Source of the DNA: a virus
Taxonomy: Duplodnaviria; Heunggongvirae; Uroviricota; Caudoviricetes
Virus record (IMG/VR): IMGVR_UViG_2703718819_000014
Span: 1-15,164 of that record
Strand: one strand, 5' to 3'
DNA: 15,164 nt
Shown here: piece by piece, positions 1,288 to 15,164 of the stretch
Layout of the letters: each line of letters starts with the position of its first letter
How positions within the stretch are numbered: position 1 is the stretch's first letter
The notes under the pieces: generated by a model
Told to the model about the DNA's origin: nothing
Seen by the model: the letters and a program-made list of their open reading frames with translations, nothing else
The model's database searches: none
Program-made: the position numbers and the translations under genes

Positions 1288-1320
1288 TGAACCTCCCAGA
1301 CGTCCAGGAGCATTAACAGG

Positions 1321-1575
1321 TTAACCGGAACTTGCATTTTTGACACCTGGTTGTTTCTGGTTTTCGATCCATCGCATAATTTCTTCGATGTTGTACAGGC
1401 ATTCACTGTAATGCCCTGGATCACCTTCTACAGCGTAATGGCGGTATTCTTTTCCCTGCATCCATGACTTTCTTCTGGCCCGCTCGATGGTGCCAGGCTT
1501 TAGCCCTGTTGATGCAATGAGGACTCTCTCCGTACACCATTTGCTGGGGGTTATCTGATAGATGATTGTCTGCAT
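1321..1575 (-). CDS. xis: Excisionase-like small DNA-binding protein
   Basis: 84-aa ORF immediately upstream of and co-oriented with int (33-bp gap); GAGG RBS; basic, small, with a lambda-Xis-like KDGREY-type segment (QGKEYRHY). Assignment rests mainly on position and size. Confidence 0.6.
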   Translation of the reverse strand: MQTIIYQITPSKWCTERVLIASTGLKPGTIERARRKSWMQGKEYRHYAVEGDPGHYSECLYNIEEIMRWIENQKQPGVKNASSG

Positions 1576-1618
1576 GCCAACCTCATAAAACTTTCATCCA
1601 CGGCAGTGGCACCACACT

Positions 1619-1735
1619 TCAAACATTCGCTTCACATCTTCTGTACAACACGGTGTTGTTTATGCAGCGAACAATTTTTACCGGGTAACCGGCACTGTCG
1701 GTATACAGTTGTCCCTGATTAATCAGAGCGAACAT
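1619..1735 (-). CDS. Hypothetical small protein (38 aa)
   Basis: Internal ATG of track ORF 1619..1858; AGGAG 5 nt upstream of the ATG at 1735; lies just after the stop of the upstream ORF at 1767. No recognisable domain. Confidence 0.3.
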   Translation of the reverse strand: MFALINQGQLYTDSAGYPVKIVRCINNTVLYRRCEANV

Positions 1736-1766
1736 TTTTTCTCCTGCTCTCTGAATAGTGAGAACT

Positions 1767-2150
1767 TCAGAGCCGTATGTTTGTAGCGGGTTCAATGCTG
1801 ATAATTTCTGCTGAGATAAGCATCCCGGCAAGCCAGAGTTCCCCGGACAGGTCTTCATCCTGGCATATCAGTTCGCCAATATTAATGGTGGCCATGATAT
1901 CCGTTTTCCCTGTGCGCTCATCCAGGACTTCTTCATAAGGCAGCGTTGCGTACAGGCTTTCAATAGCGCAATTGATAACATCCAGTCCGGTCAGATTGCC
2001 GCCGACAGTAACTTCGAATGTTTCGCGGTATTCCCATAGTCCGAAAGTTAATCGAACGGTTTGTTTTGCCATGCGTCCGCACGACGTCAGATTCGGGTCA
2101 TAGTTCATTATTTGCGGTTGAGTATTCTGGTTGTTCATCTGATTTTCCAT
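1767..2150 (-). CDS. Hypothetical protein (127 aa), last large gene of the SPFH operon
   Basis: Track ORF 1767..2213; I prefer the ATG at 2150 (MENQMNNQ...) because the GTG at 2213 would overlap the SPFH gene by 35 nt. No recognisable motif. Confidence 0.5.
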   Translation of the reverse strand: MENQMNNQNTQPQIMNYDPNLTSCGRMAKQTVRLTFGLWEYRETFEVTVGGNLTGLDVINCAIESLYATLPYEEVLDERTGKTDIMATINIGELICQDEDLSGELWLAGMLISAEIISIEPATNIRL

Positions 2151-2178
2151 TAACCCGGCGGTTTGCCGGGCGTGTAAG

Positions 2179-3006
2179 TTATTTAATCTGGATAAATGGT
2201 GTATTGGCACCACTGGTCATGTATTGCGGCAGTGTACCGTTCCACTTGTTGATGGCTTCCAGCTCCATGACGCCAGGGTTCTGGCGCAGAGCTTCGCCGC
2301 GTAAACGAATGGCATCGGCTTCTGCCAGGGCTTTTGTTCGAATGGCATCAGCCTGTCCGGCAGCTTCTGCACGCAGCATGTTGGCCTCCGCTTCACGTTG
2401 CTTGACTTCCTGTTCGCGCTGCAGGGTTTTCTGGTTTGCCGTGACTTTGGCGTTAATGCTGTCGATAACGGTTGGCGGGTATTCCGGTTTACCTACATAA
2501 GAGAGGCTCATTACCTGAACGCCGATGGGGGTCATCTCTTCCTGAATGTCTTTAAGTGCGGCATCCAGTAGTTCAGACTTGCCGCCGTCGATAAATTTGT
2601 CGGTGGTCATTTTGCTGGCCAGTCGATTGAGTGCGTCGGCGATCTTCTGGCGCAGGTCAGTGGCGGTAATGTCATCCACGCCTTTGCGGTAGGTCTGAAA
2701 CACCGTGGTAACTTTGGATGGATCAACTTTGTAGGCAACACCGATGTGATAGCCGATGGTTGTGCCGTCACTCATCTGGAAGCTGAACGGCTCATCGTAG
2801 GTCTTCATTTGTTTGAAGGTTGGGAAGATGTAAACTTCAGTATTCCAGCCAGTCCAGTAGCGACCAACACCGACCACCTCACCGACGCCTTTATCGTCGC
2901 CCAGTTTATTTACTTTGATGCCAACATTACCGGGTTCAACGCGATCGCAGCCGACAAGGCCAATGGTCGGCAGAACAATGGCTAAAGCAAAAATAATTTT
3001 TTTCAT
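2179..3006 (-). CDS. SPFH/band-7 (HflK/C, flotillin-like) domain lipoprotein
   Basis: 275-aa ORF; N-terminal signal peptide with lipobox (MKKIIFALAIVLPTIGLVGC); central region of SPFH type; C-terminal Ala/Glu/Arg-rich coiled-coil (QREQEVKQREAEANMLRAEAAGQADAIRTKALAEADAIRLRGEA); AAGGA RBS 6 nt upstream; ATG overlaps the stop of the upstream ORF (ATGA). Confidence 0.8.
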   Translation of the reverse strand: MKKIIFALAIVLPTIGLVGCDRVEPGNVGIKVNKLGDDKGVGEVVGVGRYWTGWNTEVYIFPTFKQMKTYDEPFSFQMSDGTTIGYHIGVAYKVDPSKVTTVFQTYRKGVDDITATDLRQKIADALNRLASKMTTDKFIDGGKSELLDAALKDIQEEMTPIGVQVMSLSYVGKPEYPPTVIDSINAKVTANQKTLQREQEVKQREAEANMLRAEAAGQADAIRTKALAEADAIRLRGEALRQNPGVMELEAINKWNGTLPQYMTSGANTPFIQIK

Positions 3007-3191
3007 TTTTTATCCTTAGTGAAAGAAAGACCCTTGTAAATGGCATAAATGCAGGGCGGGGTCAGAAACGCCAGTGCAAAGCCAGAAGTAACTGCTATCG
3101 TATCCTTCATGGATATAAGGAACGGAACGAGTAATCCGTAAATGCATGCGATAATTGCCAGTAAAATTACTATTGTGAAATACAGTCTCAT
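3003..3191 (-). CDS. Small two-helix membrane protein (62 aa), SPFH partner
   Basis: Two hydrophobic segments (FTIVILLAIIACIYGLLVPFLI and AVTSGFALAFLTPPCIYAIY); stop overlaps the SPFH start codon, implying translational coupling. RBS is weak and the start is uncertain. Confidence 0.5.
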   Translation of the reverse strand: MRLYFTIVILLAIIACIYGLLVPFLISMKDTIAVTSGFALAFLTPPCIYAIYKGLSFTKDKK

Positions 3192-3335
3192 TGGTATGTG
3201 GTATCCCGATATTTTTAACTGACAGACAGCGCAATAAAGAGAATAATGATTTCTGTTATTGTCAGTACTGTGGCAAGGATTAAAAGCAGTTTTACTCTGC
3301 TTAATTCACGGTTGTTTTTCATATAAATGGTTAGT

Positions 3336-3360
3336 AAAAAACGGAAGAATTATATTCTTC
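3336..3360 (-). terminator. Intrinsic terminator ending the 3-ORF cargo cassette
   Basis: On the minus strand: GAAGAAT / 3-nt loop / ATTCTTC hairpin followed by CGTTTTTT, 16 nt after the stop of ORF 3376..3948. AT-rich stem, so moderate strength. Confidence 0.5.
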
Positions 3361-3375
3361 TTAATATTTAATGTG

Positions 3376-3948
3376 TCACTGGCCTTCTGGCATACCATGA
3401 GTATTCAGGTCGTTAATCATTTCATCCAGAAGGAGTTCAAGCCCTTCTCGCCCCATGTCTGAAACAATGAAACCTTTATCTGGGTATGTAATGAGCATTT
3501 TCTGATAAAGAAACAGCGCTCTACCCATTCCTTCTGCCTCGCCGTATTTTTGAATTAAATTCCATTCAATATACTGCTGTAAGGCAAACCGAATGGGGCC
3601 GGGATATATCGTCATAACCCCATGCTTCCCGTTATATATTACGGCGCGATCTGTTGTTCCGTGTTCATTCGGGACATCAATTGTGCCGTTCTTGTCTTCT
3701 TCTTCGTTGATGAATGTCGTCACATACAACCATCGCCACTGGGCAACCTTCATCTCAACCGGAAGTTTTCCCAGTAATCCTGCTTCGTCAGCTTGCGCGA
3801 GACACTGAAGGATACGTAAACCTCGCACATTAGGAGTATCGAATTCTCCAGCATCCAGACGGCGTATGGCGTCGTGATAATCAATAGTCATACTGCCTGT
3901 TTGTATACCATTGGCTGTTGCTTCAGCCTGGAATTCAGCGTATTGCAT
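3376..3948 (-). CDS. Hypothetical protein (190 aa)
   Basis: ORF with ATG at 3948, 5 nt after the stop of the upstream 60-aa ORF (RBS inside that ORF); followed by a terminator. No motif I can name. Confidence 0.6.
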   Translation of the reverse strand: MQYAEFQAEATANGIQTGSMTIDYHDAIRRLDAGEFDTPNVRGLRILQCLAQADEAGLLGKLPVEMKVAQWRWLYVTTFINEEEDKNGTIDVPNEHGTTDRAVIYNGKHGVMTIYPGPIRFALQQYIEWNLIQKYGEAEGMGRALFLYQKMLITYPDKGFIVSDMGREGLELLLDEMINDLNTHGMPEGQ

Positions 3949-3953
3949 GAAAT

Positions 3954-4136
3954 TTATTCCTCATCTTCATCTGCTGGTGCAATAACGTCATATCCTGCCT
4001 TTTCTGCAATAAACAGGAATGTTGAAAGATTTCCTACAAATTCATCGTCATGAACATGACGAATTAATATTACTTTCCCGTTTTTGATGGTCAGCAATAC
4101 TCTGGTTTGTTCGTGTTCTGCTGTTTTCTGATGCAT
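3954..4136 (-). CDS. Hypothetical small protein (60 aa) with acidic C-terminus
   Basis: ATG at 4136 with GGGAG 7 nt upstream; C-terminus ...APADEDEE; tightly coupled to the 190-aa ORF downstream. Confidence 0.5.
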   Translation of the reverse strand: MHQKTAEHEQTRVLLTIKNGKVILIRHVHDDEFVGNLSTFLFIAEKAGYDVIAPADEDEE

Positions 4137-4540
4137 TATTATCTCCCGTATGCTTTACGCAGAAACAAGCAGGCAATATGCATGTAATTTTCACCGTGTT
4201 GTGCAATAAGACAGGCTGTTTTGTGTGATGCCTTATGTTTTATAAAAGTCATAATAAAGCCTCCAGTGGATTAAGTGTGTGATAATCCCCGGCTATTAAG
4301 CCGTAATATATTATTCGCAGATGACTTGTTTTATTTAACTGGATAGTTCTGTTTCGGCTGCTGCTTCAGCATAGCAACGTGCAAATTCAAGAACTTCATC
4401 ACCTGTTCTTTTTATTGCATCGTTGTCTTACATTTGTAATACGACAACTGCGCATAATAAATCATGGATATTGTTTGCAAAGGAATCCGGTGCCAGGCAT
4501 AAGCCTTCATACTTATCATGGATATTGCCAGTCATTGTTG

Positions 4541-5233
4541 CTACTCCTTTGCTTCTGATTTTCCCGTTAACAACCACACCAGGTCACAATTAAGCGCACT
4601 GGCCAGTGGTACTATCTGATCAGCAGGAACTTCACAGATGCCGCATTCCCAGTCGTTTATGGGGTCACTATAGGTATGAATCATGCGGGCAAGATCAGAT
4701 TCGGTTAATCCCAGTTTTGTACGGGCGCTTTTGATGCGTGCGCCAATACTTTCCACATGGACTTCAGGCACATTTACGCGAATAACTGACTCGCTGTTTT
4801 TTTCACTCAGCAGAGAAAGCGGATCGCATCCCAGGACGTTTGCCAGGGGGATAAGCATGCTGATGGTTGGCTCGTACTCTCCACTCTCCCATTGCAGAAT
4901 AATCTCTTCGTCAAGATCGAGTAGTCTGGCTAGTTCGGTAGTCGTCAAGCCGCAGGCTTCACGTTTTGTGCGTATGCAGGCTATCTTGTTGCCTGAGCGA
5001 ATAGAATGTTGTTGTTTTGTCGATGCGATCGCTAAAGCATATTCATGAGTAAATTCCAGCACATCAAACCCAACCTCTTTTAATCGCGTATCATCCAGGA
5101 GGTTGAAGGTGCGAACAGCACTGAGCAGGTTTGCGATGGTTAATGCAAAAGAATCGAGGTCTAAATCATCACATAAAACCTTGTTGTAAGTATTGAGGCT
5201 ACATGTTTTTGGTGTTGTTTGTAAGGCTTCCAT
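4541..5233 (-). CDS. Tandem-HTH (two XRE-type helix-turn-helix domains) DNA-binding protein
   Basis: Two consecutive XRE-like HTH segments (...GLTTTELARLLDLDEEIILQWESGEYEPTISMLIPLANVLGCDP... and ...GLTESDLARMIHTYSDPINDWECGICEVPADQIVPLASALNCDLVWLL...) after an ~85-aa N-terminal region of unknown type. First in-frame codon at 5269 is TTG; the ATG at 5233 is preferred. Directly downstream of and co-oriented with the cI-like gene. Confidence 0.7.
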   Translation of the reverse strand: MEALQTTPKTCSLNTYNKVLCDDLDLDSFALTIANLLSAVRTFNLLDDTRLKEVGFDVLEFTHEYALAIASTKQQHSIRSGNKIACIRTKREACGLTTTELARLLDLDEEIILQWESGEYEPTISMLIPLANVLGCDPLSLLSEKNSESVIRVNVPEVHVESIGARIKSARTKLGLTESDLARMIHTYSDPINDWECGICEVPADQIVPLASALNCDLVWLLTGKSEAKE

Positions 5234-5315
5234 ATCATCACCATGCAATTCTAAGTTGAAGTTAATCAATATATAATTGATGGTGAGATATTATGTGTCA
5301 GGTAAACTAGTGTCA

Positions 5316-5340
5316 ATCAAAAATTGATAAACTTGATTTT
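5316..5340. promoter_or_regulatory. Operator-like palindrome plus an 11-mer shared with the cI/cro intergenic region
   Basis: Perfect 13-bp palindrome ATCAAAAATTGAT (5316-5328), immediately followed by AACTTGATTTT (5330-5340), which recurs exactly at 6108-6118. Lies between the cI stop and the tandem-HTH gene start. Confidence 0.35.
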
Positions 5341-5380
5341 TTTGTAGTGGGTGACAAATAATTTAATTTAAAATCAACAA

Positions 5381-6070
5381 CTAACCAAATCTGTTGATAT
5401 TGAATGGTACAGATGAGATGACTTTTGACTGGATATACAGCAGCGCCATTCCCTCTTTTTCGATGCTCCACGGCTGATAGTTGGGATTGTCTGATAAGAC
5501 CATGATCTTGCTTCCAATTTTTTGAAGTCGTTTGACGTAACATTCGCCATCAAAGCAAAATGCATAAATGCCATCACCGTCAAAATAAGTTACTGTTTTA
5601 TCTAAAAACAGTAAGTCACCTGGGGCGATTGTTGGGGCCATGCTGTCCCCTCTGGCGTTACCGATTTCTATGTTCTTGAATGCTCTGTTACCGACCAGGC
5701 GGCGGGCATATTCAGGATCAAGTTCTATTGAGCGTACTACATCAATTAGATCTCCCCGTACATGAGTTCCGTCGCCGCAGCTGAATTCAACATCCAGCAC
5801 ATTGAACACAACGCTGTCTTCTCTTGTATGGTGTTTTTCAGCTGAAGAGTGTGTCGATGAGGTATCTTCACCCAAAAACCAGGATTGTGGATAACCACTA
5901 ATTACTGATAGTTGTGCAAGTTTATCGCTTCTGGGAAACGTCTTTCCTGTAGTCCAGTATTGTACTGATTGTGCGCTTACACCCAGCTTACGGGCTAGTT
6001 CAGCCTGACTCCAGCCTTTTGTTTTCAGCATCATTGCTATCCGATTTTCTGTGCTTTTTACATTCTTCAT
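5381..6070 (-). CDS. CI-like prophage repressor (HTH + S24 LexA-type autopeptidase)
   Basis: N-terminal XRE HTH (GWSQAELARKLGVSAQSVQYWTTGKTFP); C-terminal S24 signature with Ser in GDSMAPTI and Lys in CYVKRLQK; divergent from a cro-like gene across a 130-bp repeat-rich region. Start chosen at M11 of the track ORF (MKNVK...). Confidence 0.85.
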   Translation of the reverse strand: MKNVKSTENRIAMMLKTKGWSQAELARKLGVSAQSVQYWTTGKTFPRSDKLAQLSVISGYPQSWFLGEDTSSTHSSAEKHHTREDSVVFNVLDVEFSCGDGTHVRGDLIDVVRSIELDPEYARRLVGNRAFKNIEIGNARGDSMAPTIAPGDLLFLDKTVTYFDGDGIYAFCFDGECYVKRLQKIGSKIMVLSDNPNYQPWSIEKEGMALLYIQSKVISSVPFNINRFG

Positions 6071-6100
6071 GGTGAGTTCCTGTCGAGGCTTTATACACAT

Positions 6101-6202
6101 AAATATTAACTTGATTTTAGTGTATTCGATCCTTTTGAAACTTGCATGTTAATTTATTCTTGATGTATTCTTGATTTGTAAAGTTAATGTTGGAGCTGTG
6201 CT
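6101..6202. promoter_or_regulatory. Divergent immunity promoter/operator region (PRM/PR-like)
   Basis: AT-rich intergenic region between divergent repressor genes. Contains tandem direct repeats TATTCTTGAT (6155-6164, 6166-6175), a degenerate copy GTATTCGAT (6122-6130), and AACTTGATTTT (6108-6118); all share a TTGAT core. Individual -35/-10 hexamers were not confidently assigned. Confidence 0.5.
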
Positions 6203-6460
6203 GTGATAAAACTGAATGATTACGACATGTTGCGTAAATTGATTCCTCAAAACGCCATAGCAAGATACATCGGTGTTACGCCACAAGCGGTGAACCTGTG
6301 GTTTTCTAAAAACTCCGTTCCTTCTCGTTTTGTTTTACGGGTGTGTGAGTTAGTTGAATGGAAGGTTACTCCGCATGGGTTAAGACCTGATCTATACCCT
6401 TATCCCGAAGATGGAATTCCTGATTCGTTACGAAAATCAAACGGTATTACCAGAGATTAA
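6203..6460 (+). CDS. Cro/YdaS-like small HTH regulator
   Basis: 85-aa ORF divergent from cI-like gene; GTG start with GGAG 6 nt upstream; HTH segment IARYIGVTPQAVNLWFSKNSVP resembles the Rac YdaS/Cro-type fold. Confidence 0.7.
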   Translation: MIKLNDYDMLRKLIPQNAIARYIGVTPQAVNLWFSKNSVPSRFVLRVCELVEWKVTPHGLRPDLYPYPEDGIPDSLRKSNGITRD

Positions 6461-6541
6461 AGACTGACTGTCACGAGTAGTAACTCACGATGCATACGTT
6501 TTGGCGTGAGTTCTGAAATGTCATCCTCAAGGAGCAATCAG

Positions 6542-7249
6542 ATGAATACCGCAATTTTTACCGATAAAGCATCCATGACCAGCGTTGAAATCGCAGAGCT
6601 GGTGGGCAGCCGCCATGACAAAGTGAAACAATCCATTGAGCGCCTTGCTGAACGAGGGATTATTCAGCTTCCCCCAATGGGGATTTCTGAAAATATCAAT
6701 GGGTTAGGTTTAACTCAAAAAAGTAAGCATTATCTTTTCGAAGGTGAACGAGGCAAGCGCGACAGCATCATTGTTGTCGCACAGCTTTGCCCTGAATTCA
6801 CCGCCCGCCTGGTAGATCGCTGGCGCGAACTGGAAGAACAAATCCGTAAACCAATGAGCCAGATCGAAATGGTTGCTGCAATGGCACTTGAAGCCGTTCG
6901 CCAACAAAGACGTCTTGAGCAGGTGGAAGAGAAAGTCAGCCACGTTACCGAAACAGTCGAGCAAATCAAAAGAGGCACCATACGTGATGGTTATGCAGGT
7001 TACCGTCAGCTGGTGGCGAAAACGGGTATGTCAGATGCGAAATGCCGCAATCTGGTGAACGCATATCAGATCCCTACCGATACCCATGAATTTATGACGC
7101 CGGATGGATTGTTGTCTCGTCGCGCGATTGTTGCAGTAGAACCCTTCATGTCTGCTTTTCATCGAATGATGAGTGAAGCAGAACCACGAGGTGCACGCTG
7201 GTATCACCCGAAAATGGGGCTGTTCCAGGCGCTGGGCTGGCAGGTGTAA
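6542..7249 (+). CDS. Rha-family phage regulatory protein (antirepressor-like), paralog 1
   Basis: AAGGAG 6 nt upstream of ATG at 6542; N-terminal region (MTSVEIAELVGSRHDKVKQSIERLAERGII ... YLFEGERGKRDSIIVVAQL) matches the Rha/ORF6N-type pattern. Confidence 0.7.
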   Translation: MNTAIFTDKASMTSVEIAELVGSRHDKVKQSIERLAERGIIQLPPMGISENINGLGLTQKSKHYLFEGERGKRDSIIVVAQLCPEFTARLVDRWRELEEQIRKPMSQIEMVAAMALEAVRQQRRLEQVEEKVSHVTETVEQIKRGTIRDGYAGYRQLVAKTGMSDAKCRNLVNAYQIPTDTHEFMTPDGLLSRRAIVAVEPFMSAFHRMMSEAEPRGARWYHPKMGLFQALGWQV

Positions 7250-7268
7250 TTATGCTCACAGGTAGCAC

Positions 7269-7448
7269 ATGCAAGTACTCAATCGCTGGTTCCGTGATGG
7301 AAGGGGGCGTCGCGTCCACGTTATACGCTGGGAGCCTGAAACACAGCGCGTTATCTATCTTCGCAAAGACTACCCGCATGAGTGCTTTAGTCCTTTGTGG
7401 AAATTCAGGCGTGATTTTGTTGAGTGTGAAGGAACACCAGCATATTGA
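7269..7448 (+). CDS. Small basic hypothetical protein (59 aa), not in the ORF track
   Basis: ATG at 7269 in a different frame from track ORF 7252..8277; translation MQVLNRWFRDGRGRRVHVIRWEPETQRVIYLRKDYPHECFSPLWKFRRDFVECEGTPAY looks protein-like (balanced composition, Trp/Cys spacing); just below the 60-aa threshold. Confidence 0.4.
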   Translation: MQVLNRWFRDGRGRRVHVIRWEPETQRVIYLRKDYPHECFSPLWKFRRDFVECEGTPAY

Positions 7449-7725
7449 TTCTGCAATTCCGGGACGTTACACTGTTCCGGCACCTTATAAAGCGGGTGCC
7501 GGGCGTGGAAACCCGAAATTCAATATAGAGCACAACCGCGCTCATGCGGTTTTTTCGTGTCATGAGCATCGTTACGCCCAAATTATGGTGGGGCGTGCAG
7601 GGCCAACTTCGGTTGGGCCGGGTTCTATGTTGACCGGTATTTCCACCCCTGTACGTCTCACCACCTATATGGTCGTGGAAAGCCTTGGTGGTGAGTTCAT
7701 TGAATTCAACATAGGGGCTGTCACC

Positions 7726-8277
7726 ATGACTACTCTCCCAACCCAATCTCACCCTGAAATCACGATTATCAATGGTCGCGTTGTCACCACATCTCTTGCA
7801 GTAGCTAATTACTTTACTAAACGGCATGAGCGGGTTTTAGATAGAATTAGAAACCTCGAATGTTCCGCTGAATTTACTGAACACAATTTTGTGTTAAGTG
7901 AATACACCGACGCATCAGGCCGCAAACTCCCTTGTTACCAAATCACCCGCGACGGTTTTGCATTTCTTGCTATGGGTTTCACGGGTAAACGTGCTGCCCG
8001 GTTCAAAGAAGCATACATCAATGCCTTTAACCAGATGGAGAGGTGCTTATCAGGAGTTGGTGCGGCTGATATGCCATCTGTCGCACAAAACGCCAGAGGC
8101 GTATACCTGCATTTGCGAGAAATCCACCAAATCTGGACAAGCCAGCTTTATCCCATGCTTAAGGCTGTTGAATCTCCGCTGGCTAGCAAACTGTACGACC
8201 GTGTAGGTGATGCTGTTTTTGGTGCTGCACTTGTTGATTCCAGACTGAACGGTTCTGACAAGGAGGCGCACCCATGA
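7726..8277 (+). CDS. Rha-family phage regulatory protein, paralog 2
   Basis: Internal ATG of track ORF 7252..8277; from MTTLPTQSHPEITIINGRVVTTSLAVANYFTKRHERVLDRIRNL ... YQITRDGFAFLAMGFTGKRAARFKEAYINAFNQME follows the Rha-domain pattern. The upstream 474 nt of the long ORF lacks coding signals. Confidence 0.7.
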   Translation: MTTLPTQSHPEITIINGRVVTTSLAVANYFTKRHERVLDRIRNLECSAEFTEHNFVLSEYTDASGRKLPCYQITRDGFAFLAMGFTGKRAARFKEAYINAFNQMERCLSGVGAADMPSVAQNARGVYLHLREIHQIWTSQLYPMLKAVESPLASKLYDRVGDAVFGAALVDSRLNGSDKEAHP

Positions 8278-8507
8278 TTCGCCGCGTCGTTAGTTCCCTG
8301 TATCACCGATACAACCACTGCCCCCGTGTGGGGCAGTGGTTCACCACCAGCAACGGTCACGTTCTGCGGGTTTGCCTGGTCAATACAGAAAGCCAGAAGG
8401 TTGTCTGCCAGGTTCAGGGATGTACTCATACCCTGAGTTATCCGCTGGTGGCGTTTCAGTCCGGAAAAATGTTTAAACGCCTGGGAGGTGGCTATGCGTC
8501 CGTCTGA
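8274..8507 (+). CDS. Small Cys-containing hypothetical protein (77 aa)
   Basis: AAGGAGG 7 nt upstream; ATG overlaps the stop of Rha paralog 2 (ATGA); four Cys at positions 16, 34, 45, 50; 3' end overlaps the replication-initiator start. Confidence 0.5.
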   Translation: MIRRVVSSLYHRYNHCPRVGQWFTTSNGHVLRVCLVNTESQKVVCQVQGCTHTLSYPLVAFQSGKMFKRLGGGYASV

Positions 8508-9387
8508 TCTTCTGCTCGATTTTGGACATCCGGTTGCTTATTACCCTGGGCTCGTTAAATACATGGGAAGTCCGCACGCTGTTATTTTCTTTGGTCAGAT
8601 TTTTTACTGGCAGGATAAAGCACATGCAGCGGAAGGCGTACATAAAACGCGTGAAGAGATACAACACGAAACAGGACTTACATTTGAACAACAGGCTGTA
8701 GCGCGTAAGCATCTTGTGTCCAGAGGCATTTTGGTTGAAACCAACAAGCGTCTTGAGCACAAAATGTTCTACCGTATAGATTGTGAGCGCCTTAATGAAA
8801 TTATCAATGAAAACAATCAGTTTTCCCGAAATGGGGAAACCCGTTTTCGGGAAACTGTAAAACCCAATTTCGCGGAGGAGGGAAAGCCTTCACCGCGGGC
8901 ACGGGAAACCCCTCGCCGCGGAGAAGGGAAAACCAATTTCGATCTTACAGAGAATACAACAGAGATTACTTCAGAGAATACTACAGAGAGTAAAAACACT
9001 ATTGGCGCATCCGCTGACGCGTCTGCACCAGCACGTTCTGCCCGACAGGAATATTCACCGGAATTTGAACAGGCCTGGCAGGAATATCCCAAACGTGCTG
9101 GTGGTAATTCCAAGTCAGCTGCTTTCAAAGCCTGGAAAGCCCGTATCAGGGAAGGTGTGACACCCGAAATCATGCTCAACGGTGTGAAACGCTATGCCGC
9201 CTGGGTGCGTGTCTCAGGAAATATCGGTACCCAGTTCGTGAAGCAGGCGTCGACGTTCTTTGGCCCCGATCGGCACTTTGACGAATTCTGGCAACAGCCA
9301 GCAGCCCCCGGAGGTGGGCGGGGCAAAAGCCTCCCAATCTCGGGATTCAGTGAACAGGATTACGGCTCAACGAACTTCAACTGGTGA
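8494..9387 (+). CDS. Replication initiator / replisome-organiser protein (lambda O / Rac YdaU-like)
   Basis: GGGAGG 5 nt upstream of ATG 8494; coding sequence contains iteron-like repeats; basic C-terminal segment EFEQAWQEYPKRAGGNSKSAAFKAWKARIREGV; immediately upstream of the DnaC-like and DnaB-like genes. Confidence 0.65.
   Translation: MRPSDLLLDFGHPVAYYPGLVKYMGSPHAVIFFGQIFYWQDKAHAAEGVHKTREEIQHETGLTFEQQAVARKHLVSRGILVETNKRLEHKMFYRIDCERLNEIINENNQFSRNGETRFRETVKPNFAEEGKPSPRARETPRRGEGKTNFDLTENTTEITSENTTESKNTIGASADASAPARSARQEYSPEFEQAWQEYPKRAGGNSKSAAFKAWKARIREGVTPEIMLNGVKRYAAWVRVSGNIGTQFVKQASTFFGPDRHFDEFWQQPAAPGGGRGKSLPISGFSEQDYGSTNFNW
8833..8992. repeat. ori-like iteron array inside the initiator gene
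   Basis: Five copies of GGGAAA(A)CC-type repeats at about 8833, 8848, 8880, 8903 and 8926, followed by four tandem ~12-bp ACAGAGA(A/T)TAC units (8947-8992). Matches the lambdoid layout of iterons plus an adjacent repetitive tract inside the O gene. Confidence 0.5.
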
Positions 9388-9406
9388 TTTTGTGGGGAGG
9401 GTGAAA

Positions 9407-10297
9407 ATGACTAATTTCCTGAACAAACAACACATGCAACACGACAAAGCGCAGTTACTTAACCGCAAGGCAGACTTGGAAGAGGAGCTGGCATTTGTCC
9501 GTGGCGGAAAGCGTCCGTGGCGCTGTGAGCATTGGGTGCAAAGCACTGAGACGGTGTCCTGCGGGAAACACGGAAAATACACGCGCTATGTGCTGACGGG
9601 CCCGGATGTAAGGGGGAAAGCTGTCAAACGGGTGTCCGGTTGCCTGTCCTGCCTCAGTGAGGAGCTGGACCGCGTGTATGACGAATTACGCGCCCTGAAG
9701 GTTCGTGAATTACTCGATCAGGCCGGTATTGCCCGCCGGTTCCAGGACTGTGAGTTTGAGAATTATCAGGCGGTGAATACTGACGCACAGAAAAACCTTG
9801 AAGCCTGTCAGCGCTATGCCGCTTCCTGGAAGAAATGTCTCGCTGCAGGCACCAGCATGGTCATGATTGGCAATTGTGGTACCGGGAAAAATCACCTGGC
9901 TGTATCAATGGCAAAAAATATTATTCGCCACCACCAGGCAACCATAGAAATCACGGATGTGATGCGGCTTACCCGTGCGGTGAAAAATACCTGGCGCCAC
10001 AACTCTGAGCGCACTGACGATGAAGTGATTAATCATTTTGCATCGCTGGATCTGCTTATCATCGATGAGGTTGGTGTGCAGTTCGGTACGCCTGCGGAGA
10101 TAACCATCCTGCAGGAAATCATAAATGCACGTTACGAAAGCGTTTTACCGACAATTTTGATCAGCAACCTGACGTTTGAACAGCTTAAGGAATCCATTGG
10201 TGAACGGATTGTGGATCGCGTTACTGATGGTGGGCGTAACTGCCTGGTGTTTGGTTGGGAAAGCTACCGTGCGCATATCAGAGGTGTGGCAGCATGA
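9407..10297 (+). CDS. DnaC/IstB-like AAA+ helicase loader with N-terminal Cys cluster
   Basis: GGAGG 6 nt upstream of ATG 9407; Walker A GNCGTGKNHLA, Walker B LLIIDEVG; N-terminal CEHW...SCGKHG...GCLSC zinc-finger-like cluster. Confidence 0.85.
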   Translation: MTNFLNKQHMQHDKAQLLNRKADLEEELAFVRGGKRPWRCEHWVQSTETVSCGKHGKYTRYVLTGPDVRGKAVKRVSGCLSCLSEELDRVYDELRALKVRELLDQAGIARRFQDCEFENYQAVNTDAQKNLEACQRYAASWKKCLAAGTSMVMIGNCGTGKNHLAVSMAKNIIRHHQATIEITDVMRLTRAVKNTWRHNSERTDDEVINHFASLDLLIIDEVGVQFGTPAEITILQEIINARYESVLPTILISNLTFEQLKESIGERIVDRVTDGGRNCLVFGWESYRAHIRGVAA

Positions 10298-11694
10298 CAA
10301 ACCCGACAAATCCGGCGTGGCGTAATGATGACCTGGAAGGAGCTGTCATTGGCGCGTTTTTTCTGCGAGGGGCTGATCCGGAAGTGATGGATATTCTGGC
10401 CACACTTCCGGCGGATGTCTTTTTCGTGCGTCAGTACAGGGATATTTACGCGGGAATTTGCAGACAGGCCCGTGTATCCGGCGTCATTGACCCCGTACTG
10501 CTGTGCAATGAGATGCCGGAACTTGCCCCGGTGATTACCGACACCGGACGCAAAACCTGGGTGAAGTCTTCACTGGAGCACTATGTTGCAGCGCTGCGGC
10601 GCAATGCCGCACTGCGCGATGCAGAAAAAACACTGACCGAAGCATTACAGAATTTACGTGATGCGCATACCTGTGAAGCAGCTGAGGATGCCCTGAAGGA
10701 TGCGCAGAACATGATGACCTCACTGTCGACCGGAAAGGGCGTCATTCAGCCGGTTCACATTGATGATGTTCTTCCGGAAGTGGTCGACCGTGTTGAATGC
10801 CGCAATCAGGGACTGGAGAAATCCAGGGCACTGATGACCGGTATTGATGAACTGGACGCAAAAACGGGCGGTATGGAGCCAGGCGACCTGGTATTCATTG
10901 CGGCCCGTCCTTCGATGGGGAAAACCGAACTTGCGCTGGATATCATCGACAAGGTGACTGAGCAGGGGCATGGCGTGCTTCTGTTCACCATGGAGATGGC
11001 GAACATCCAGATTGGTGAACGTATGGTGTCTGCTGCCGGTGGAATGCCGGTATCCCGTCTTAAGTCTGTTGCCCGTTTTGAAGATGAAGACTGGGCGCGT
11101 TTCTCGCAGGGCGTGGGACGAATGACGGGGCGTAATATCTGGATGGTGGACCAGGCAAACCTGACCATTGATGAGATATGTGCAACCACGAGGCACCACC
11201 GGATGAAACACCCGGAAACGGCGCTGGTGGTGGTCGATTACCTCGGCCTGATTAAAACCCGCAGCACGGGGCGTCACGACCTTGCTGTGGGGGAAATCTC
11301 AAAGGGACTTAAAAGCCTGGCAAAATCCGGCGGTTTTCCGCTGATTGCTCTGAGCCAGCTCTCCCGTGGCGTGGAATCCAGACCCAATAAACGCCCCATG
11401 AACTCGGACCTGAAAAACTCAGGGGAAATAGAGGCGGATGCAGACATCATTCTGATGCTTTACAGGGATGAGGTGTACAACCCGGAGACACAGGCGAGAG
11501 GCATAGCTGAAATCAACATCACGAAACAGCGTAATGGCACGCTGGGTACCATTTACCGGCGTTTTCATAACGGGCATTTTCTGCCTGTGGATCAGGAGAG
11601 TGCCCGGGTTCTTTCCACTCCCATGACGCCGGGCAATCCGCGCAGATACAGCAATAACCGCATGTCGGGTAGTAAAACGGAGCGTTTATTTTGA
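10294..11694 (+). CDS. DnaB-like replicative DNA helicase
   Basis: 466 aa; ATG overlaps the DnaC-like stop (ATGA); RecA-fold C-terminal domain with Walker A ARPSMGKTELAL and Walker B-like ALVVVDYLGL. Confidence 0.85.
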   Translation: MTNPTNPAWRNDDLEGAVIGAFFLRGADPEVMDILATLPADVFFVRQYRDIYAGICRQARVSGVIDPVLLCNEMPELAPVITDTGRKTWVKSSLEHYVAALRRNAALRDAEKTLTEALQNLRDAHTCEAAEDALKDAQNMMTSLSTGKGVIQPVHIDDVLPEVVDRVECRNQGLEKSRALMTGIDELDAKTGGMEPGDLVFIAARPSMGKTELALDIIDKVTEQGHGVLLFTMEMANIQIGERMVSAAGGMPVSRLKSVARFEDEDWARFSQGVGRMTGRNIWMVDQANLTIDEICATTRHHRMKHPETALVVVDYLGLIKTRSTGRHDLAVGEISKGLKSLAKSGGFPLIALSQLSRGVESRPNKRPMNSDLKNSGEIEADADIILMLYRDEVYNPETQARGIAEINITKQRNGTLGTIYRRFHNGHFLPVDQESARVLSTPMTPGNPRRYSNNRMSGSKTERLF

Positions 11695-11948
11695 ACAACA
11701 GAACAACCACTGTTTCACCGGAACAACTTCGTCGGCAGGCGCAGGAGATGCTTCGTTGTGCTGAACAGATGGAAAAAACGAGCGTGGCAAAAGATACGCT
11801 CCGCAAGCAGCTTACTCCGGCGCTTCGTGATCTGCTGCAGGCAAAACACCGCACACAAAAGGCGGTGGATGAGCTGGTGGATTGCGTGGCGGAACTGGAA
11901 GGCCAGGTAAGCCAGTTTGAAACGCTGGTGAAAGAGTTTACTGCGTGA
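11691..11948 (+). CDS. Hypothetical small coiled-coil protein (85 aa)
   Basis: ORF overlapping the helicase stop; first codon TTG; helical heptad-like composition. Start and reality uncertain. Confidence 0.4.
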   Translation: MNNRTTTVSPEQLRRQAQEMLRCAEQMEKTSVAKDTLRKQLTPALRDLLQAKHRTQKAVDELVDCVAELEGQVSQFETLVKEFTA

Positions 11949-11999
11949 TGGCTGAATTTTTTCTCCTGCGTTCATGCAATACCGTTCGCTGAGGTGACC

Positions 12000-12989
12000 G
12001 TGAGAGCACTGCTGACCCCTGAAATTGCCCCGCGTATGGGGATCGTCTTGTTCAGACCCGGTTCAGAGCTGATGCCCCTGTTTATGCAGGGGCGTGTCCT
12101 GCTGGAGCCTGAGCCGGAACGTTATTCATCTTTTGCCAGTGGTGCCGTTCCGGCAGCATCACAACCGCTGGCGGATGATCCTGCCGTTCGGGCCGTGTTC
12201 CGCCATGAGGCGGTGATCCGTCGTGCTGGTGGCGTGGAATGCCTTGAGAGCTGGTTACTTCGTGAAAAAGGCTGCCAGTGGCCTCATTCCGGATGGCACA
12301 GCGAGAACATGACCACAATGCGACACGCGCCGGGCGCAATCCGTCTGTGCTGGCACTGCGATAACCTGCTTCGCGATCAGTTCACGGAACGTCTGGAGTC
12401 AATGGCAACGGATAACTGTGCCCGCTGGGTGTTGTCCGTAGTCCGTCGTGATCTCGGTTTTGATGACAGTCACGTTGTGACAATGCCTGAACTGTGCTGG
12501 TGGCTGGTTCGTAATGACCTGGCGGATGCCTTACCGGAAAGTGCAGCCCGTAAGGCCCTGAGATTACCGAAGCCTGTTTTGCCGTCTGTCACCCGGGAGA
12601 GTGACCTTGTGCCTTCGGTTCCTGCCACCAGCATTATCCAGGATAAAGCGAAAAAGGTGCTGGCGCTGAAAGTGGATCCGGAGTCGCCGGAGTCTTTTAT
12701 GTTACGCCCCAAACGTCGTCGCTGGGTTAATGAAAAGTACACGCGCTGGGTTAAGACGCAGCCGTGTGCATGTTGTGGTAAGCCAGCCGACGATCCGCAT
12801 CACCTGATTGGTCATGGTCAGGGTGGAATGGGTACAAAAGCGCATGACCTTTTTGTGTTGCCTTTGTGCAGAAAACACCATGACGAACTGCATGCGGATA
12901 CCGTGGCATTTGAAGAGAAGTATGGTTCCCAACTGGAGCTGATATTTCGTTTTATCGATCGCGCGCTGGCGATTGGTGTGCTGTCCTGA
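12000..12989 (+). CDS. DUF968-like (Qin YdfU-type) protein with C-terminal Cys/His motif
   Basis: C-terminal CACCGKPADDPHHLIGHGQGGMGTKAHDLFVLPLCRKHHDELH resembles the DUF968 / HNH-like metal-binding pattern found beside Q in Qin-type prophages. Start uncertain: GTG at 11994 or 12000 (GAGG 5 nt upstream), or ATG at 12036. Confidence 0.6.
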   Translation: MRALLTPEIAPRMGIVLFRPGSELMPLFMQGRVLLEPEPERYSSFASGAVPAASQPLADDPAVRAVFRHEAVIRRAGGVECLESWLLREKGCQWPHSGWHSENMTTMRHAPGAIRLCWHCDNLLRDQFTERLESMATDNCARWVLSVVRRDLGFDDSHVVTMPELCWWLVRNDLADALPESAARKALRLPKPVLPSVTRESDLVPSVPATSIIQDKAKKVLALKVDPESPESFMLRPKRRRWVNEKYTRWVKTQPCACCGKPADDPHHLIGHGQGGMGTKAHDLFVLPLCRKHHDELHADTVAFEEKYGSQLELIFRFIDRALAIGVLS

Positions 12990-13006
12990 TTTTGTGGAGA
13001 AAGTTG

Positions 13007-13399
13007 ATGCGTGATATTCAGATGGTTCTCGAACGCTGGGGGGCATGGGCGGCAAGTGGTAACGCCGGGGTGGACTATTCTCCGATAGCTGCTGGATTTA
13101 AAGGCCTTTTACCATCCACCGCTAAACCTCGCCCGGCCTGCAGCGATGATGACGGCCTTATCATCGAAAACTGCCTTACGCGCCTGAAGAAGAAAAAACC
13201 GGACGAGTATTCGCTGCTGGTAGCTCATTATCTGCTGCGCATATCAAAAAGGCAGATTGCCAGAACAAGAAAGAAGAGCGAAAAGGCAATACGAATTGAG
13301 ATGCAGATTGCTGAAGGATTTATTGACGGATGTCTGTCGATGCTGGGTGTAAGGCTGGAGATGGACGACTGGCTGCCCAAAAAAGTAAAAAATGATTAG
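13007..13399 (+). CDS. Late-gene antiterminator, Q family (phage-82/P22 gp23 type)
   Basis: 130 aa; N-terminus MRDIQMVLERWGAWAA and ...AAGFKGL...C.DDD...RLKKK.PDEY.LL..YY match the Phage_antitermQ-type pattern; GGAG RBS. Coordinates taken from the ORF track. Confidence 0.75.
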   Translation: MRDIQMVLERWGAWAASGNAGVDYSPIAAGFKGLLPSTAKPRPACSDDDGLIIENCLTRLKKKKPDEYSLLVAHYLLRISKRQIARTRKKSEKAIRIEMQIAEGFIDGCLSMLGVRLEMDDWLPKKVKND

Positions 13400-13459
13400 C
13401 GCGGTCCGCAAAAAGTATGTCAGTATGTTAAGAGTGGTTACTACGCCACACAACTTAAA

Positions 13460-13481
13460 CCCGCCGCCTGGCGGGTTTTTT
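13460..13481 (+). terminator. Intrinsic terminator about 60 nt downstream of Q
   Basis: CCCGCC / GCCT / GGCGGG hairpin followed by TTTTTT; preceded by a CA-rich unstructured tract CGCCACACAACTTAAA. Confidence 0.7.
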
Positions 13482-13600
13482 ATGACTGAAATCGCATCAG
13501 TACAGTAAACGTGCTGGTGGTGAATACCTGTCTTTCAGCTTGCTGGCTTTTTAGACAAGAGTTATTGGTATGTCACGTTAACCGGAAAAGGGAAAAAGAC

Positions 13601-13798
13601 ATGCTAAAACAGCAGGATATGACAGAAACCGCCAGAGTGGTGTTTAATGAATTAAGCGTCACCTACCCGGCGACAGTCGGGGAGATTGCGCAGAATACTT
13701 ACCTTTCACGCGAACGCTGCCAGTTAATACTGACCCAGCTGGTTATGGCGGGTCTGGCAGACTATCAGTTCGGTTGTTACAGACGCCTTCCGCAGTGA
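13601..13798 (+). CDS. Small putative winged-helix DNA-binding protein (65 aa)
   Basis: Internal ATG of track ORF 13511..13798 with AGGGA upstream; size and pattern (VGEIAQNTYLSRERCQLILTQLVMAGL) resemble small PapI/FaeA-type regulators; followed directly by a terminator. Weak assignment. Confidence 0.45.
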   Translation: MLKQQDMTETARVVFNELSVTYPATVGEIAQNTYLSRERCQLILTQLVMAGLADYQFGCYRRLPQ

Positions 13799-13812
13799 AG
13801 GCTTTTTTATTT
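13785..13812 (+). terminator. Intrinsic terminator
   Basis: GCCTTC / CGCAGT / GAAGGC hairpin overlapping the stop of the small ORF, followed by TTTTTTATTT. Confidence 0.65.
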
Positions 13813-13922
13813 GTGGTAAATGGGCGGCTGGTGGGTGTGGTGGTTGTTGCTTTCCCGTTGCTGAAAAAGAAAGCATCAGGCGATTAGCAGGGTATCAGTT
13901 ACCCGTTGAAATTTTTAAATAC

Positions 13923-14152
13923 CTCACAATTCAGGCGGTTGACTGTTGTCTGGTTTGCGGGGAGTTTGTTAAAAGAAACTGGCATGGTGAATCCCCCTGT
14001 GCGGAGGGGCAATCAGCAACTGGTGTTTTGTCACCGACCCTTATCCTTTCTGTGCGGGTTCAGGTGCTGATACTGAACTCACCGGGAGGCACCCGGCACC
14101 ATGCAATGGCACATAGCGCCACTCTCCAGCCCCTCTCCGGAGGGGCTTTTCT
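13923..14152 (+). ncRNA. Candidate structured sRNA module, copy 1 (includes its terminator 14129-14152)
   Basis: Conserved blocks shared with copy 2 at identical spacing: CTCACAATTCAG, TTGACn (+16), TTTGTTAAAA (+42), GCATGGTGAATCCCCCTGnGCGGAGGGGC (+59), CTGAACTCACCGGGAGGCACCCGGCACCATG, then hairpin GCCCCTC/TCCG/GAGGGGC + TTTT. The 5' GCATGGTG can pair with 3' CACCATGC, closing a 123-nt domain. Confidence 0.4.
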
Positions 14153-14341
14153 GTGCCGGATACATCACAGTTTCTGGAACCTTGGGTACTACAGTATCAG
14201 TCAGGGTGCTATATTTTCAGATGTGATGAAAGCCTGTCAGCAGGCAGGGCGTATCGGAAATGACCCAGTAGAGAAAACGTTGACTCAGATACCGGTGCTG
14301 AGTTACCGGGAAACCGGCATCACATGACCGCTATCCTTCCA

Positions 14342-14368
14342 GGCCCATCCGCTCCGGTGGGCCTTTTT
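14342..14368 (+). terminator. Intrinsic terminator
   Basis: GGCCCA / 10-nt loop / TGGGCC hairpin followed by TTTTTA. Confidence 0.55.
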
Positions 14369-14405
14369 ACTGCAGAAAACAGGTTCCCCGTTAAATGCTA
14401 TGTTG

Positions 14406-14640
14406 CTCACAATTCAGTAAGTTGACAGTTGCCTGTCAGACTGGGCATTTGTTAAAAAAATTTCGCATGGTGAATCCCCCTGAGCGGAGGGGCGACTGGT
14501 GACGGTATAATCTCTGATTATCAAAACGAGAATGACGCGGGTTTAGTGGCACCGGGCTGAACTCACCGGGAGGCACCCGGCACCATGTGCATGATGATAC
14601 AGATACACGGCTTTAGCCCCTCTCCGGAGGGGCTTTCTTG
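14406..14640 (+). ncRNA. Candidate structured sRNA module, copy 2 (includes its terminator 14616-14640)
   Basis: Same block order and spacing as copy 1 (blocks at +16, +42, +59); closing helix GCATGGTG ... CACCATGT spans 124 nt (the one change gives a G-U pair); intervening sequence differs from copy 1; terminator hairpin GCCCCTC/TCCG/GAGGGGC followed by a weak U-tract (TTTCTT). Confidence 0.4.
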
Positions 14641-14645
14641 TGGGC

Positions 14646-14672
14646 AAAAAAAAAGCCCGAGTGGGTTCGGGC
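14646..14672 (-). terminator. Intrinsic terminator on the minus strand, back-to-back with the copy-2 terminator
   Basis: On the minus strand: GCCCGA / ACCCAC / TCGGGC hairpin followed by nine T (plus-strand A9 at 14646-14654). Confidence 0.6.
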
Positions 14673-14694
14673 AACAGCATGAGATATACATTTT

Positions 14695-14700
14695 TATAAT
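14695..14700 (+). promoter_or_regulatory. Candidate -10 element (TATAAT) of a late (PR'-like) promoter
   Basis: Perfect TATAAT with AT-rich upstream sequence and no clear -35; about 30 nt upstream of a strong terminator and 155 nt upstream of the esterase start. Confidence 0.35.
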
Positions 14701-14727
14701 CGAATGGATTTTAACCAGAATTCATAA

Positions 14728-14752
14728 GGCTGCGCAACTGCGCGGCCTTTTT
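14728..14752 (+). terminator. Intrinsic terminator (tR'-like)
   Basis: GGCTGCGC / AACT / GCGCGGCC (8 bp with one G-U pair) followed by TTTTT; about 100 nt upstream of the esterase start codon. Confidence 0.65.
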
Positions 14753-14855
14753 CGTATTGCGGGCTGTAGTCTTCCTCCTGCCATTGTCCTGTAACTTCCG
14801 GACTTCAGCCCGTTCCCTCATCTGACTCACAACATTATCCCGACCGGGAGGATTC

Positions 14856-15164
14856 ATGACATTTAAACACTACGATGTGGTCAGGGCGGCGTCGCCGTCA
14901 GACCTTGCGGAGCGACTGACTCAAAAACTGAAGGAGGGGTGGCAGCCATTTGGCAGTCCGGTGGCCATCACGCCCTATACCCTGATGCAGGCCATTGCGG
15001 CGGAAGGTGATGTCACCACACCTGTGGTGGTGAAGCCGTCGGATGGAGAAGGCACAGTTATCAGCACCACCAGCGAACCGGAGTATTACTTTGTTGTTGT
15101 TCTGGCGGGGCAGTCAAACTCAATGTCTTTTGGTGAAGGGCTGCCGCTGCCGGAGACATATGAC
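14856..15164 (+). CDS. NanS-p-like sialate O-acetylesterase (5' partial; gene runs off the window)
   Basis: GGGAGG 5 nt upstream of ATG 14856; open to the window end; N-terminus MTFKHYDVVRAASPSDLAERLTQKLKEGWQPFGSPVAITPYTLMQ matches, from memory, the DUF1737-type N-domain of prophage NanS-p proteins; followed by VVVLAGQSNSMSFGEG, a GQSN esterase-type motif. Not in the ORF track because no stop codon is in the window. Confidence 0.7.
   Translation, partial: MTFKHYDVVRAASPSDLAERLTQKLKEGWQPFGSPVAITPYTLMQAIAAEGDVTTPVVVKPSDGEGTVISTTSEPEYYFVVVLAGQSNSMSFGEGLPLPETYD

Follow-up and report, generated by a model that had tools for sequence, protein, structure and literature searches.

A dense, strand-biased cluster of Chi octamers (5'-GCTGGTGG-3') occupies the early-right half of a prophage that carries no recognisable recombination or anti-RecBCD gene of its own. 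The prophage is represented by a 15,164-nt stretch of DNA from a tailed phage (Caudoviricetes), positions 1 to 15,164 of IMG/VR record IMGVR_UViG_2703718819_000014, and this whole stretch is called the window below. By its gene content and order, the element is a lambdoid prophage, and it belongs to a lineage that includes Shiga toxin (Stx)-converting phages of E. coli. The Chi excess in the window is real and statistically robust. In our view, the oriented cluster is likely to engage the host RecBCD enzyme in an element that lacks Rec and anti-RecBCD genes of its own.

An oriented excess of the exact Chi octamer

We searched both strands of the window for exact matches to GCTGGTGG and obtained 13 Chi sites, 10 on the plus strand and 3 on the minus strand (Table 1). 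An earlier sequence-only reading of this DNA had counted 12 sites. All 12 of its coordinates were correct, and the automated recount reproduced its three minus-strand sites at 8344, 12625, and 15067, but the total was off by one because the plus-strand site at 6598 had been missed. The interval 6598-13834 holds all ten plus-strand sites. When both strands are counted, 12 sites fall within 6203-13834, versus none in the early-left arm (1-6202). Moreover, Chi was the most frequent plus-strand octamer of the window, with 10 copies against 5 for the runner-up.

Eight of the ten plus-strand sites are in coding sequence, five of them in the frame xxG-CTG-GTG-Gxx (Leu-Val), two in GCT-GGT-GGx (Ala-Gly-Gly), and one in TGC-TGG-TGG (Cys-Trp-Trp). 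The sequence-only reading had also described the sites as spread over several codon frames with two of them non-coding. Going by the annotated gene starts of relatives, the sites at 13513 and 13827 are indeed non-coding, but the frames are less varied than was implied, given that Leu-Val accounts for five of eight. As for the minus strand, the site at 15067 is located antisense inside the nanS-p/yjhS-like gene and is thus not a non-coding site.

The size of the excess was examined with several controls. Dinucleotide shuffles (n = 200) gave an expectation of 0.50 Chi on both strands with a maximum of 3, and none of the 200 reached the observed 13. The mean copy number was 0.67 for the 24 single-mismatch neighbours of Chi and 0.44 for the 168 octamers with its base composition. 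Because both sets stayed at background, the excess is specific to the exact octamer, and a general enrichment of Chi-like sequence, which we had considered, was rejected. We also ran codon-preserving controls, as the sequence-only reading had proposed, on the segment from cro to Q (6203-13400), in which either codons were permuted within genes or synonymous codons were shuffled with the protein kept (10,000 each). Eight plus-strand Chi were observed in this segment, while 0.48 were expected from permuted codons and 1.29 from the synonymous shuffle. The maximum in the codon shuffles was 5, and 0/10,000 reached 8. On the minus strand, two Chi were observed against 0.13-0.16 expected from the codon-aware controls, and approximately 0.6-0.7% of shuffles reached two.

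These controls bear on the possibility that the excess is an artefact of composition or codon usage, in which CTG-containing Chi would simply accumulate on a G-rich coding plus strand. CTG, which is contained in Chi, is the commonest E. coli codon. The preponderance of the Leu-Val frame among the coding sites and the positive GC skew across 9-14 kb would fit such an origin, as would the high maximal-order estimate from the embedded 7-mers (12 x 10 / 17 = 7), although this estimate is circular for so short a sequence. However, the codon-preserving shuffles expect only 0.5-1.3 sites and never produce the eight observed, octamers that differ from Chi by one mismatch or share its composition are not enriched, and lambda, with nearly the same codon usage, has zero Chi. 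The probability that we leave to an artefact of this kind is negligible, and the sequence-only reading, which had called codon usage an unlikely cause, was right on this point.

Chi in relatives and in host DNA

The window is 94-96% identical over 87-91% of its length to a lambdoid prophage family that includes Stx2a-, Stx2d-, and Stx1a-converting phages of E. coli O145:H28, O111:H8, O55:H7, and others. The closest relatives carry all ten plus-strand Chi. In the complete relative Stx2_95 (L003; 46.3 kb in prophage order), we counted 15 Chi on the plus strand and 3 on the minus strand. Of the 15, twelve fall in the stretch from cro (6.7 kb) to the terminase genes (23.3 kb; binomial P = 6e-4 for 12 or more), two are in terminase/head genes, and the approximately 16 kb of tail genes contain none. 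Another complete relative, Stx1_14040, carries 8 plus-strand and 2 minus-strand sites. Across the 52 IMG/VR relatives that cover the 7.7-kb equivalent of cro to Q, the number of plus-strand Chi ranged from 4 to 10 (median 6) and that of minus-strand Chi from 1 to 4, and the ten of the window are at the top of the former range. The early-left arm (5 kb) of 58 relatives held a mean of 0.36 plus-strand Chi and no minus-strand Chi. A profile over 78 relatives showed Chi concentrated between the replication region and cos/terminase, as in the window. Among the comparators, lambda has no Chi on either strand, and the first 50 kb of 933W, which possesses exo-bet-gam, has one on the plus strand and none on the minus strand.

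Three genomes have the relative integrated at yecE, and the remaining site, inside another prophage, is ompW. The yecE prophages are inverted and the ompW prophage is direct. Assuming the gene order of K-12, which we take to place yecE on the left replichore and ompW on the right, the phage plus strand is co-oriented with replication at both sites. In the orientation of the window, the host flanks of the yecE prophages carry 7 plus and 1 minus, 7 plus and 1 minus, and 6 plus and 1 minus Chi per 20 kb, and those of the ompW prophage carry 3 plus and 1 minus per 16 kb. The sequence-only reading had conceded that a comparable density in codon-preserving shuffles or in flanking host DNA would undercut its proposal; neither the shuffles nor the flanks match the cluster. 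The cluster holds 12 Chi in 7.6 kb (1.57/kb) compared with 0.25-0.40/kb in the flanks (P = 8e-5) and approximately 0.22/kb in K-12 (P = 2e-7), and is thus 4-7 times as dense in Chi as host DNA. We had also considered the second integration site as a means of telling an orientation set by cos from one set by the replichore, and gave this up since both sites are co-oriented and orientation alone does not discriminate.

These data allow an assessment of a host-replichore effect, which the sequence-only reading had named as its alternative and in which the prophage shares or has acquired the leading-strand polarity and Chi content of the chromosome without any phage-specific role. As far as orientation is concerned, the alternative held up: the plus strand matches the Chi-rich strand of the adjacent host DNA at yecE and ompW, and the Chi density of the whole prophage (18 in 46 kb) equals that of the flanks. 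In Stx2_95, moreover, motifs resembling FtsK-orienting polar sequences (KOPS; GGGNAGGG) are polarised, with 8 on the plus strand and 1 on the minus strand, and the overall GC skew is +0.11, so the whole prophage carries a host-like replication polarity. A chromosomal Chi pattern of the host type (approximately 0.2/kb in replichore orientation) nevertheless fits in orientation only and leaves the local density, the empty 6.2-kb left arm, and the Chi-free tail genes of the complete relative unexplained. Drift towards host composition cannot exceed the host density or yield such a distribution, and free-living phages of the class described as having no Rec module and high Chi show the same pattern (PMC12315714). 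We therefore give a pure replichore effect very little credence.

Recombination genes and the host RecBCD pathway

All early-left open reading frames (ORFs) of at least 49 aa were scanned against Pfam, PHROGs, and NCBIfam, and none of them matched an exonuclease, a single-strand annealing protein (SSAP; Red-beta/RecT, Erf, Sak, or Sak4), an SSB, or a RecBCD inhibitor (Gam/Abc2). Tblastn searches with the Exo, Bet, Gam, SSB/Ea10, NinB, and NinG proteins of lambda and 933W recovered the positive controls and found nothing in the window. They were equally negative for 80 IMG/VR loci sharing the DnaB module at 97-100% amino-acid identity and for three relative loci, namely the complete prophages L003 and L004 and a 23-kb region, L001. 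A 190-aa early-left orphan gave no structural matches. The claim that the early-left region is devoid of exo/bet/gam-like ORFs was thus borne out by both types of search.

For 5'-GCTGGTGG-3' to be recognised, RecBCD must reach it from its 3' side (PMC12315714). Consistent with this established polarity, the sequence-only reading had stated that plus-strand Chi is active on RecBCD that runs towards lower coordinates, which here means coming from the cos/late-gene side. In an element with no exonuclease, SSAP, or RecBCD inhibitor, linear replication and packaging intermediates would be exposed to host RecBCD, and selection has probably filled the segment from the immunity and replication genes to the packaging site with Chi. 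By the precedents in the literature, RecBCD would start from the free cos end on the right, or from a rolling-circle tail, and move left across the lysis genes, Q, and the replication genes, meeting the plus-strand Chi in the active orientation. At the first Chi recognised, the enzyme would switch from degrading DNA to loading RecA, and the end would invade another phage copy. Such invasion would save the DNA and at the same time supply the concatemers on which cos packaging depends. The counts, their orientation, the lack of recognisable Rec genes, and the homology of the packaging module come from the present analysis, whereas the place where RecBCD enters and the benefit for growth are proposed by analogy with the lambdoid phage LLS and with the genetics of lambda red gam chi+.

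The packaging genes of the lineage resemble those of LLS. In the complete relative, the small terminase subunit (TerS) is 50% identical to its LLS counterpart, and the large terminase subunit (TerL), the portal protein, and the fused protease-coat protein are 71-75% identical. The LLS TerL, to which that of the relative is 71% identical, was placed in the lambda 5'-cos group (PMC12315714). A candidate cos-like sequence, GGGCGGCGCGGA, lies 195 bp upstream of the gene for the terminase small subunit of the relative, the cos of LLS being GGGCGGCGCGCT.

The sequence-only reading had suggested that attenuation of RecBCD by Chi protects replicating or linear DNA. This idea matches the published explanation (PMC3784561, PMC12315714), but protection on its own is incomplete. 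In a protection-only scheme, Chi would merely switch off the RecBCD nuclease, and rolling-circle tails, cut cos ends, and restriction fragments would survive without recombination. By extension, Chi might limit the supply of RecBCD fragments that feed spacer acquisition by CRISPR systems; Levy et al. reportedly linked RecBCD fragments and Chi to CRISPR adaptation in 2015. Protection alone accounts for the same Chi excess and orientation as recombination through RecBCD does, and shielding from the RecBCD exonuclease, and hence from restriction, is among the advantages listed for Chi (PMC3784561). However, it predicts that a phage grows equally well or better in a host without RecBCD, whereas the growth of LLS is reduced on recB and recC hosts and normal on recD hosts (PMC12315714). 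This growth pattern indicates that RecBCD is used productively, by way of Chi-stimulated recombination that contributes to concatemer formation, and not merely attenuated, pointing to a positive need for RecBC-promoted recombination, in this case of LLS only. On balance, we judge that protection without recombination is unlikely to be the whole explanation.

One gene in the cluster suggested an extension of the RecBCD reading. The DUF968/HNH gene (11994-12989) carries two plus-strand Chi, and its product is 55% identical to gp47 of LLS (36867-37805 of the LLS genome, L090), both genes standing directly before Q. We envisaged that this protein might act as a junction- or end-processing nuclease, a counterpart of lambda Rap/NinG. 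A direct homology with NinG/Rap was rejected since BLASTP detected no similarity to the lambda protein. The gene is absent from the Chi-rich relative Stx1_14040. That productive growth after induction of this lineage, with its clinically important Stx1/Stx2-converting members, depends on RecBCD/RecA acting at the Chi cluster, with DUF968/HNH as an accessory nuclease of the pathway, is in our estimation a rather improbable proposition as it stands.

Several points weigh against engagement of RecBCD by the cluster. At least one site, at 12496, is imposed by a conserved Cys-Trp-Trp stretch (motif ELCWW), and LLS gp47 likewise has a Chi at the corresponding position (37243). Gene orientation and co-orientation with host replication both confound the strand bias. 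A novel RecBCD modulator could be concealed among the small early-left orphans (DUF5406 and the 60-aa and 62-aa proteins). The window itself ends before cos and the late genes, and the RecBCD dependence of its element is extrapolated from LLS. Furthermore, the relatives are not phylogenetically independent. Among 82 distinct relatives, Chi retention was 0.73 versus 0.65 for neighbouring control octamers (Wilcoxon p = 0.22), a difference that is not significant, and site-by-site purifying selection was not supported. The site at 7009 is exact in so few relatives that it must turn over, and the sites at 7009, 8444, and 13513 are often missing in relatives, with other Chi arising nearby. Because retention does not significantly exceed that of controls and sites turn over, what we claim is a maintained density, not conserved positions.

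Gene layout and comparison with known systems

The order of genes in the window matches the lambdoid organisation, in agreement with the sequence-only reading, which had called the element a prophage, and the late half is seen in the complete relatives (94-96% identity). The minus-strand genes are, in order, int, xis, a DUF4222 remnant, DUF5406, an SPFH/Band-7 gene, a gene for a small membrane protein, the 190-aa orphan, a 60-aa orphan, a helix-turn-helix regulator, and a cI-type repressor that includes an S24 peptidase domain. Along the plus strand, cro is followed by a Rha-family gene, an antirepressor region, a 77-aa gene, an O-like initiator, a DnaC/IstB-like ATPase (loader), a DnaB-type helicase, an 85-aa gene, DUF968/HNH, and antiterminator Q.

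Table 1. Chi sites and other features of the 15,164-nt window
Feature	Position	Strand	Remark
Chi	6598-6605	+	Rha-family gene, Leu-Val frame; exact in 85% of 66 aligned relatives
Chi	7009-7016	+	Rha-family gene, Leu-Val frame; exact in only 19% of relatives
Chi	8444-8451	+	77-aa gene upstream of O-like gene, Leu-Val frame
Chi	9097-9104	+	Ala-Gly-Gly frame, in the gene for the O-like replication initiator; exact in 99% of 82 relatives
Chi	11223-11230	+	DnaB-type helicase gene, Leu-Val frame
Chi	11873-11880	+	Leu-Val frame, in the 85-aa gene that follows dnaB; exact in 100% of 82 relatives
Chi	12225-12232	+	DUF968/HNH gene, Ala-Gly-Gly frame
Chi	12496-12503	+	DUF968/HNH gene, Cys-Trp-Trp frame (conserved ELCWW motif)
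Chi	13513-13520	+	downstream of Q, non-coding by the annotated gene starts of relatives; exact in 18% of relatives
Chi	13827-13834	+	non-coding, downstream of the 13601-13798 gene
Chi, opposite (inactive) orientation	8344-8351	-	antisense in 77-aa gene; invariant in 76 relatives
Chi, opposite orientation	12625-12632	-	antisense in DUF968 gene; invariant in 75 relatives
Chi, opposite orientation	15067-15074	-	antisense in nanS-p/yjhS-like gene (starts 14856, runs off the window)
Early-left arm	1-6100	-	no Chi on either strand, no recognisable Rec module
Early-right operon with Chi cluster	6203-13399	+	gene content in the text
Iteron-like repeats	8948-8992	+	21-nt repeat in three overlapping copies, spaced 12 bp, within O-like gene

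The int gene occupies 1-1287, and its stop codon coincides exactly with the start of the window. Where relatives are integrated at yecE, int and the DUF72 gene (yecE) overlap by 17 bp at their 3' ends, which would place the attachment site at the very edge of the window. In the early-left operon, the SPFH/Band-7 gene (2179-3006, minus strand) encodes an HflK/C-like protein that some records call a 'serine protease', and the gene for the small membrane protein (3003-3191) directly follows it. The SPFH/Band-7 protein may modulate FtsH, which would be relevant to lysogeny decisions. The repeats inside the O-like gene are of the CAGAGAATAC / ACAGAGATTA type, and the plus-strand Chi at 9097 lies approximately 105 bp to their right; they are plausible candidates for origin iterons. 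Rfam placed isrK (7480-7556) and C4 antisense RNA (7581-7668) on the plus strand inside ORF 7252-8277, which reads as a 341-aa 'Ash + Rha' protein. The region 7480-7668 looks like an immI (c4-icd-ant) antirepressor module of the P1/P7 type, and the long ORF is therefore probably not a single gene. The segment 7520-8262 is a mosaic piece that differs from the closest relatives.

The right end of the window differs in cargo from the closest relatives, in which a methylase gene, three tRNAs, and stx2AB separate Q from the nanS-p-like gene. This methylase-tRNA-stx module is absent from the window (13838-14856), where ARAGORN found no tRNA, and the element is therefore a non-Stx member of the lineage. 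The Rfam family STnc100, a small RNA (sRNA), occurs twice in tandem on the plus strand at 13953-14158 and 14436-14645 (141 and 165 bits), the two units being approximately 483 bp apart and each ending in a GC-rich hairpin, and the AsxR ('anti-stx2') sRNA matches 14650-14702 on the minus strand. Thus, the window is a stx-less relative that retains, with a duplication, the sRNA region usually found downstream of stxB.

A class of phages with these properties has been described. Bobay, Touchon, and Rocha (2013, PLoS Genet; PMC3784561) analysed 275 lambdoid (pro)phages and found that those without recombinases and RecBCD inhibitors strongly over-represent Chi, with a median observed/expected ratio of approximately 3 over whole genomes, and that Chi in these phages is concentrated between the replication genes/origin and terminase/cos and not in the cargo region. 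Lambdoids encoding Gam or Abc2 avoid Chi. Zheng, Casjens, Davidson, Amundsen, and Smith (2025; PMC12315714) isolated LLS, which lacks a Rec module and carries 23 Chi; 20 of these have the active orientation and cluster at the right end (our recount gave 20 plus and 3 minus). In their survey, 62 of 68 lambdoids without a Rec module had at least 8 Chi in the active orientation, and the class was defined by at least 8 Chi that act on RecBCD coming from the right cos end, with no more than 6 in the opposite orientation. The window alone has 10 plus and 3 minus sites and Stx2_95 has 15 and 3, in both of them Chi is concentrated between the replication region and cos/terminase, and no exonuclease, SSAP, SSB, or Gam/Abc2 was recognised. 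By these sequence-level criteria, the window therefore fits the lambdoid class with no Rec module and high Chi.

Both the observation and its interpretation are already published, having been described in 2013 and tested experimentally in 2025 (PMC3784561, PMC12315714). The window adds no new principle and is a further clean case of a trade-off in which a phage has either its own recombination system and RecBCD inhibitor together with Chi avoidance, or neither of them and a Chi-loaded origin-to-cos segment. The one slightly new angle is that a lineage containing Stx-converting phages (of O145, O111, O55, and other serotypes) is placed in the RecBCD-using class; a full-text literature search found Chi, RecBCD, Stx, and prophage mentioned together only by Zheng et al. 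(PMC12315714). Membership in this class predicts a lower phage yield in recB, recC, and recA hosts. If the dependence on RecBCD through the Chi cluster is true, the recombination status of the host would govern phage yield and the spread of toxin genes. The natural set of eight coding and two non-coding Chi is open to recoding as a model test.

Compared with known systems, the window and its relatives have the same Chi distribution as the lambdoids of E. coli and Salmonella that lack recombinases and RecBCD inhibitors in the 2013 set, and the local excess in the window is approximately 6- to 17-fold over the codon-aware expectation in a 7-kb segment. LLS and the window element are both lambdoid, both lack exo, SSAP, SSB, and anti-RecBCD genes in the early-left operon, and both have many Chi in the right part of the virion map, mostly active for RecBCD coming from the right cos end. 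They differ in attachment site (ssrA for LLS, yecE/ompW for the window lineage), in the integrase and early-left genes, and in the replication module, which consists of O only in LLS but of an O-like initiator, a DnaC-like loader, and a DnaB helicase in the window. RecBCD dependence was assayed in LLS, whereas the window element, a prophage of the Stx-phage lineage, is known here from its sequence.

The mechanistic paradigm is lambda red gam chi+, in which a Chi in the correct orientation allows a phage devoid of Red and Gam to grow again in recBCD+ cells by stimulating RecA/RecBCD recombination from the right cos end. The chi+ alleles of lambda are single laboratory mutations in a naturally Chi-less phage, whereas the sites in the window are many and natural, and in the window lineage, unlike wild-type lambda, Red/Gam was either never present or lost. 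The temperate phage P1 likewise has no general recombination system of its own and needs RecA and RecBCD; it carries 50 Chi in 94.8 kb, and Chi outnumbers every other octamer in P1 as in the window. However, P1 is not lambdoid, packages by a pac/headful mechanism with terminal redundancy, and has a plasmid prophage. Stx phages of the 933W/lambda type have the lambdoid layout in common with the window, as well as the Q and nanS-p regions and the sRNA region lying downstream of stx, but they possess a complete Red/Gam system and almost no Chi (1 in 50 kb in 933W and 0 in lambda), and thus represent the opposite strategy.

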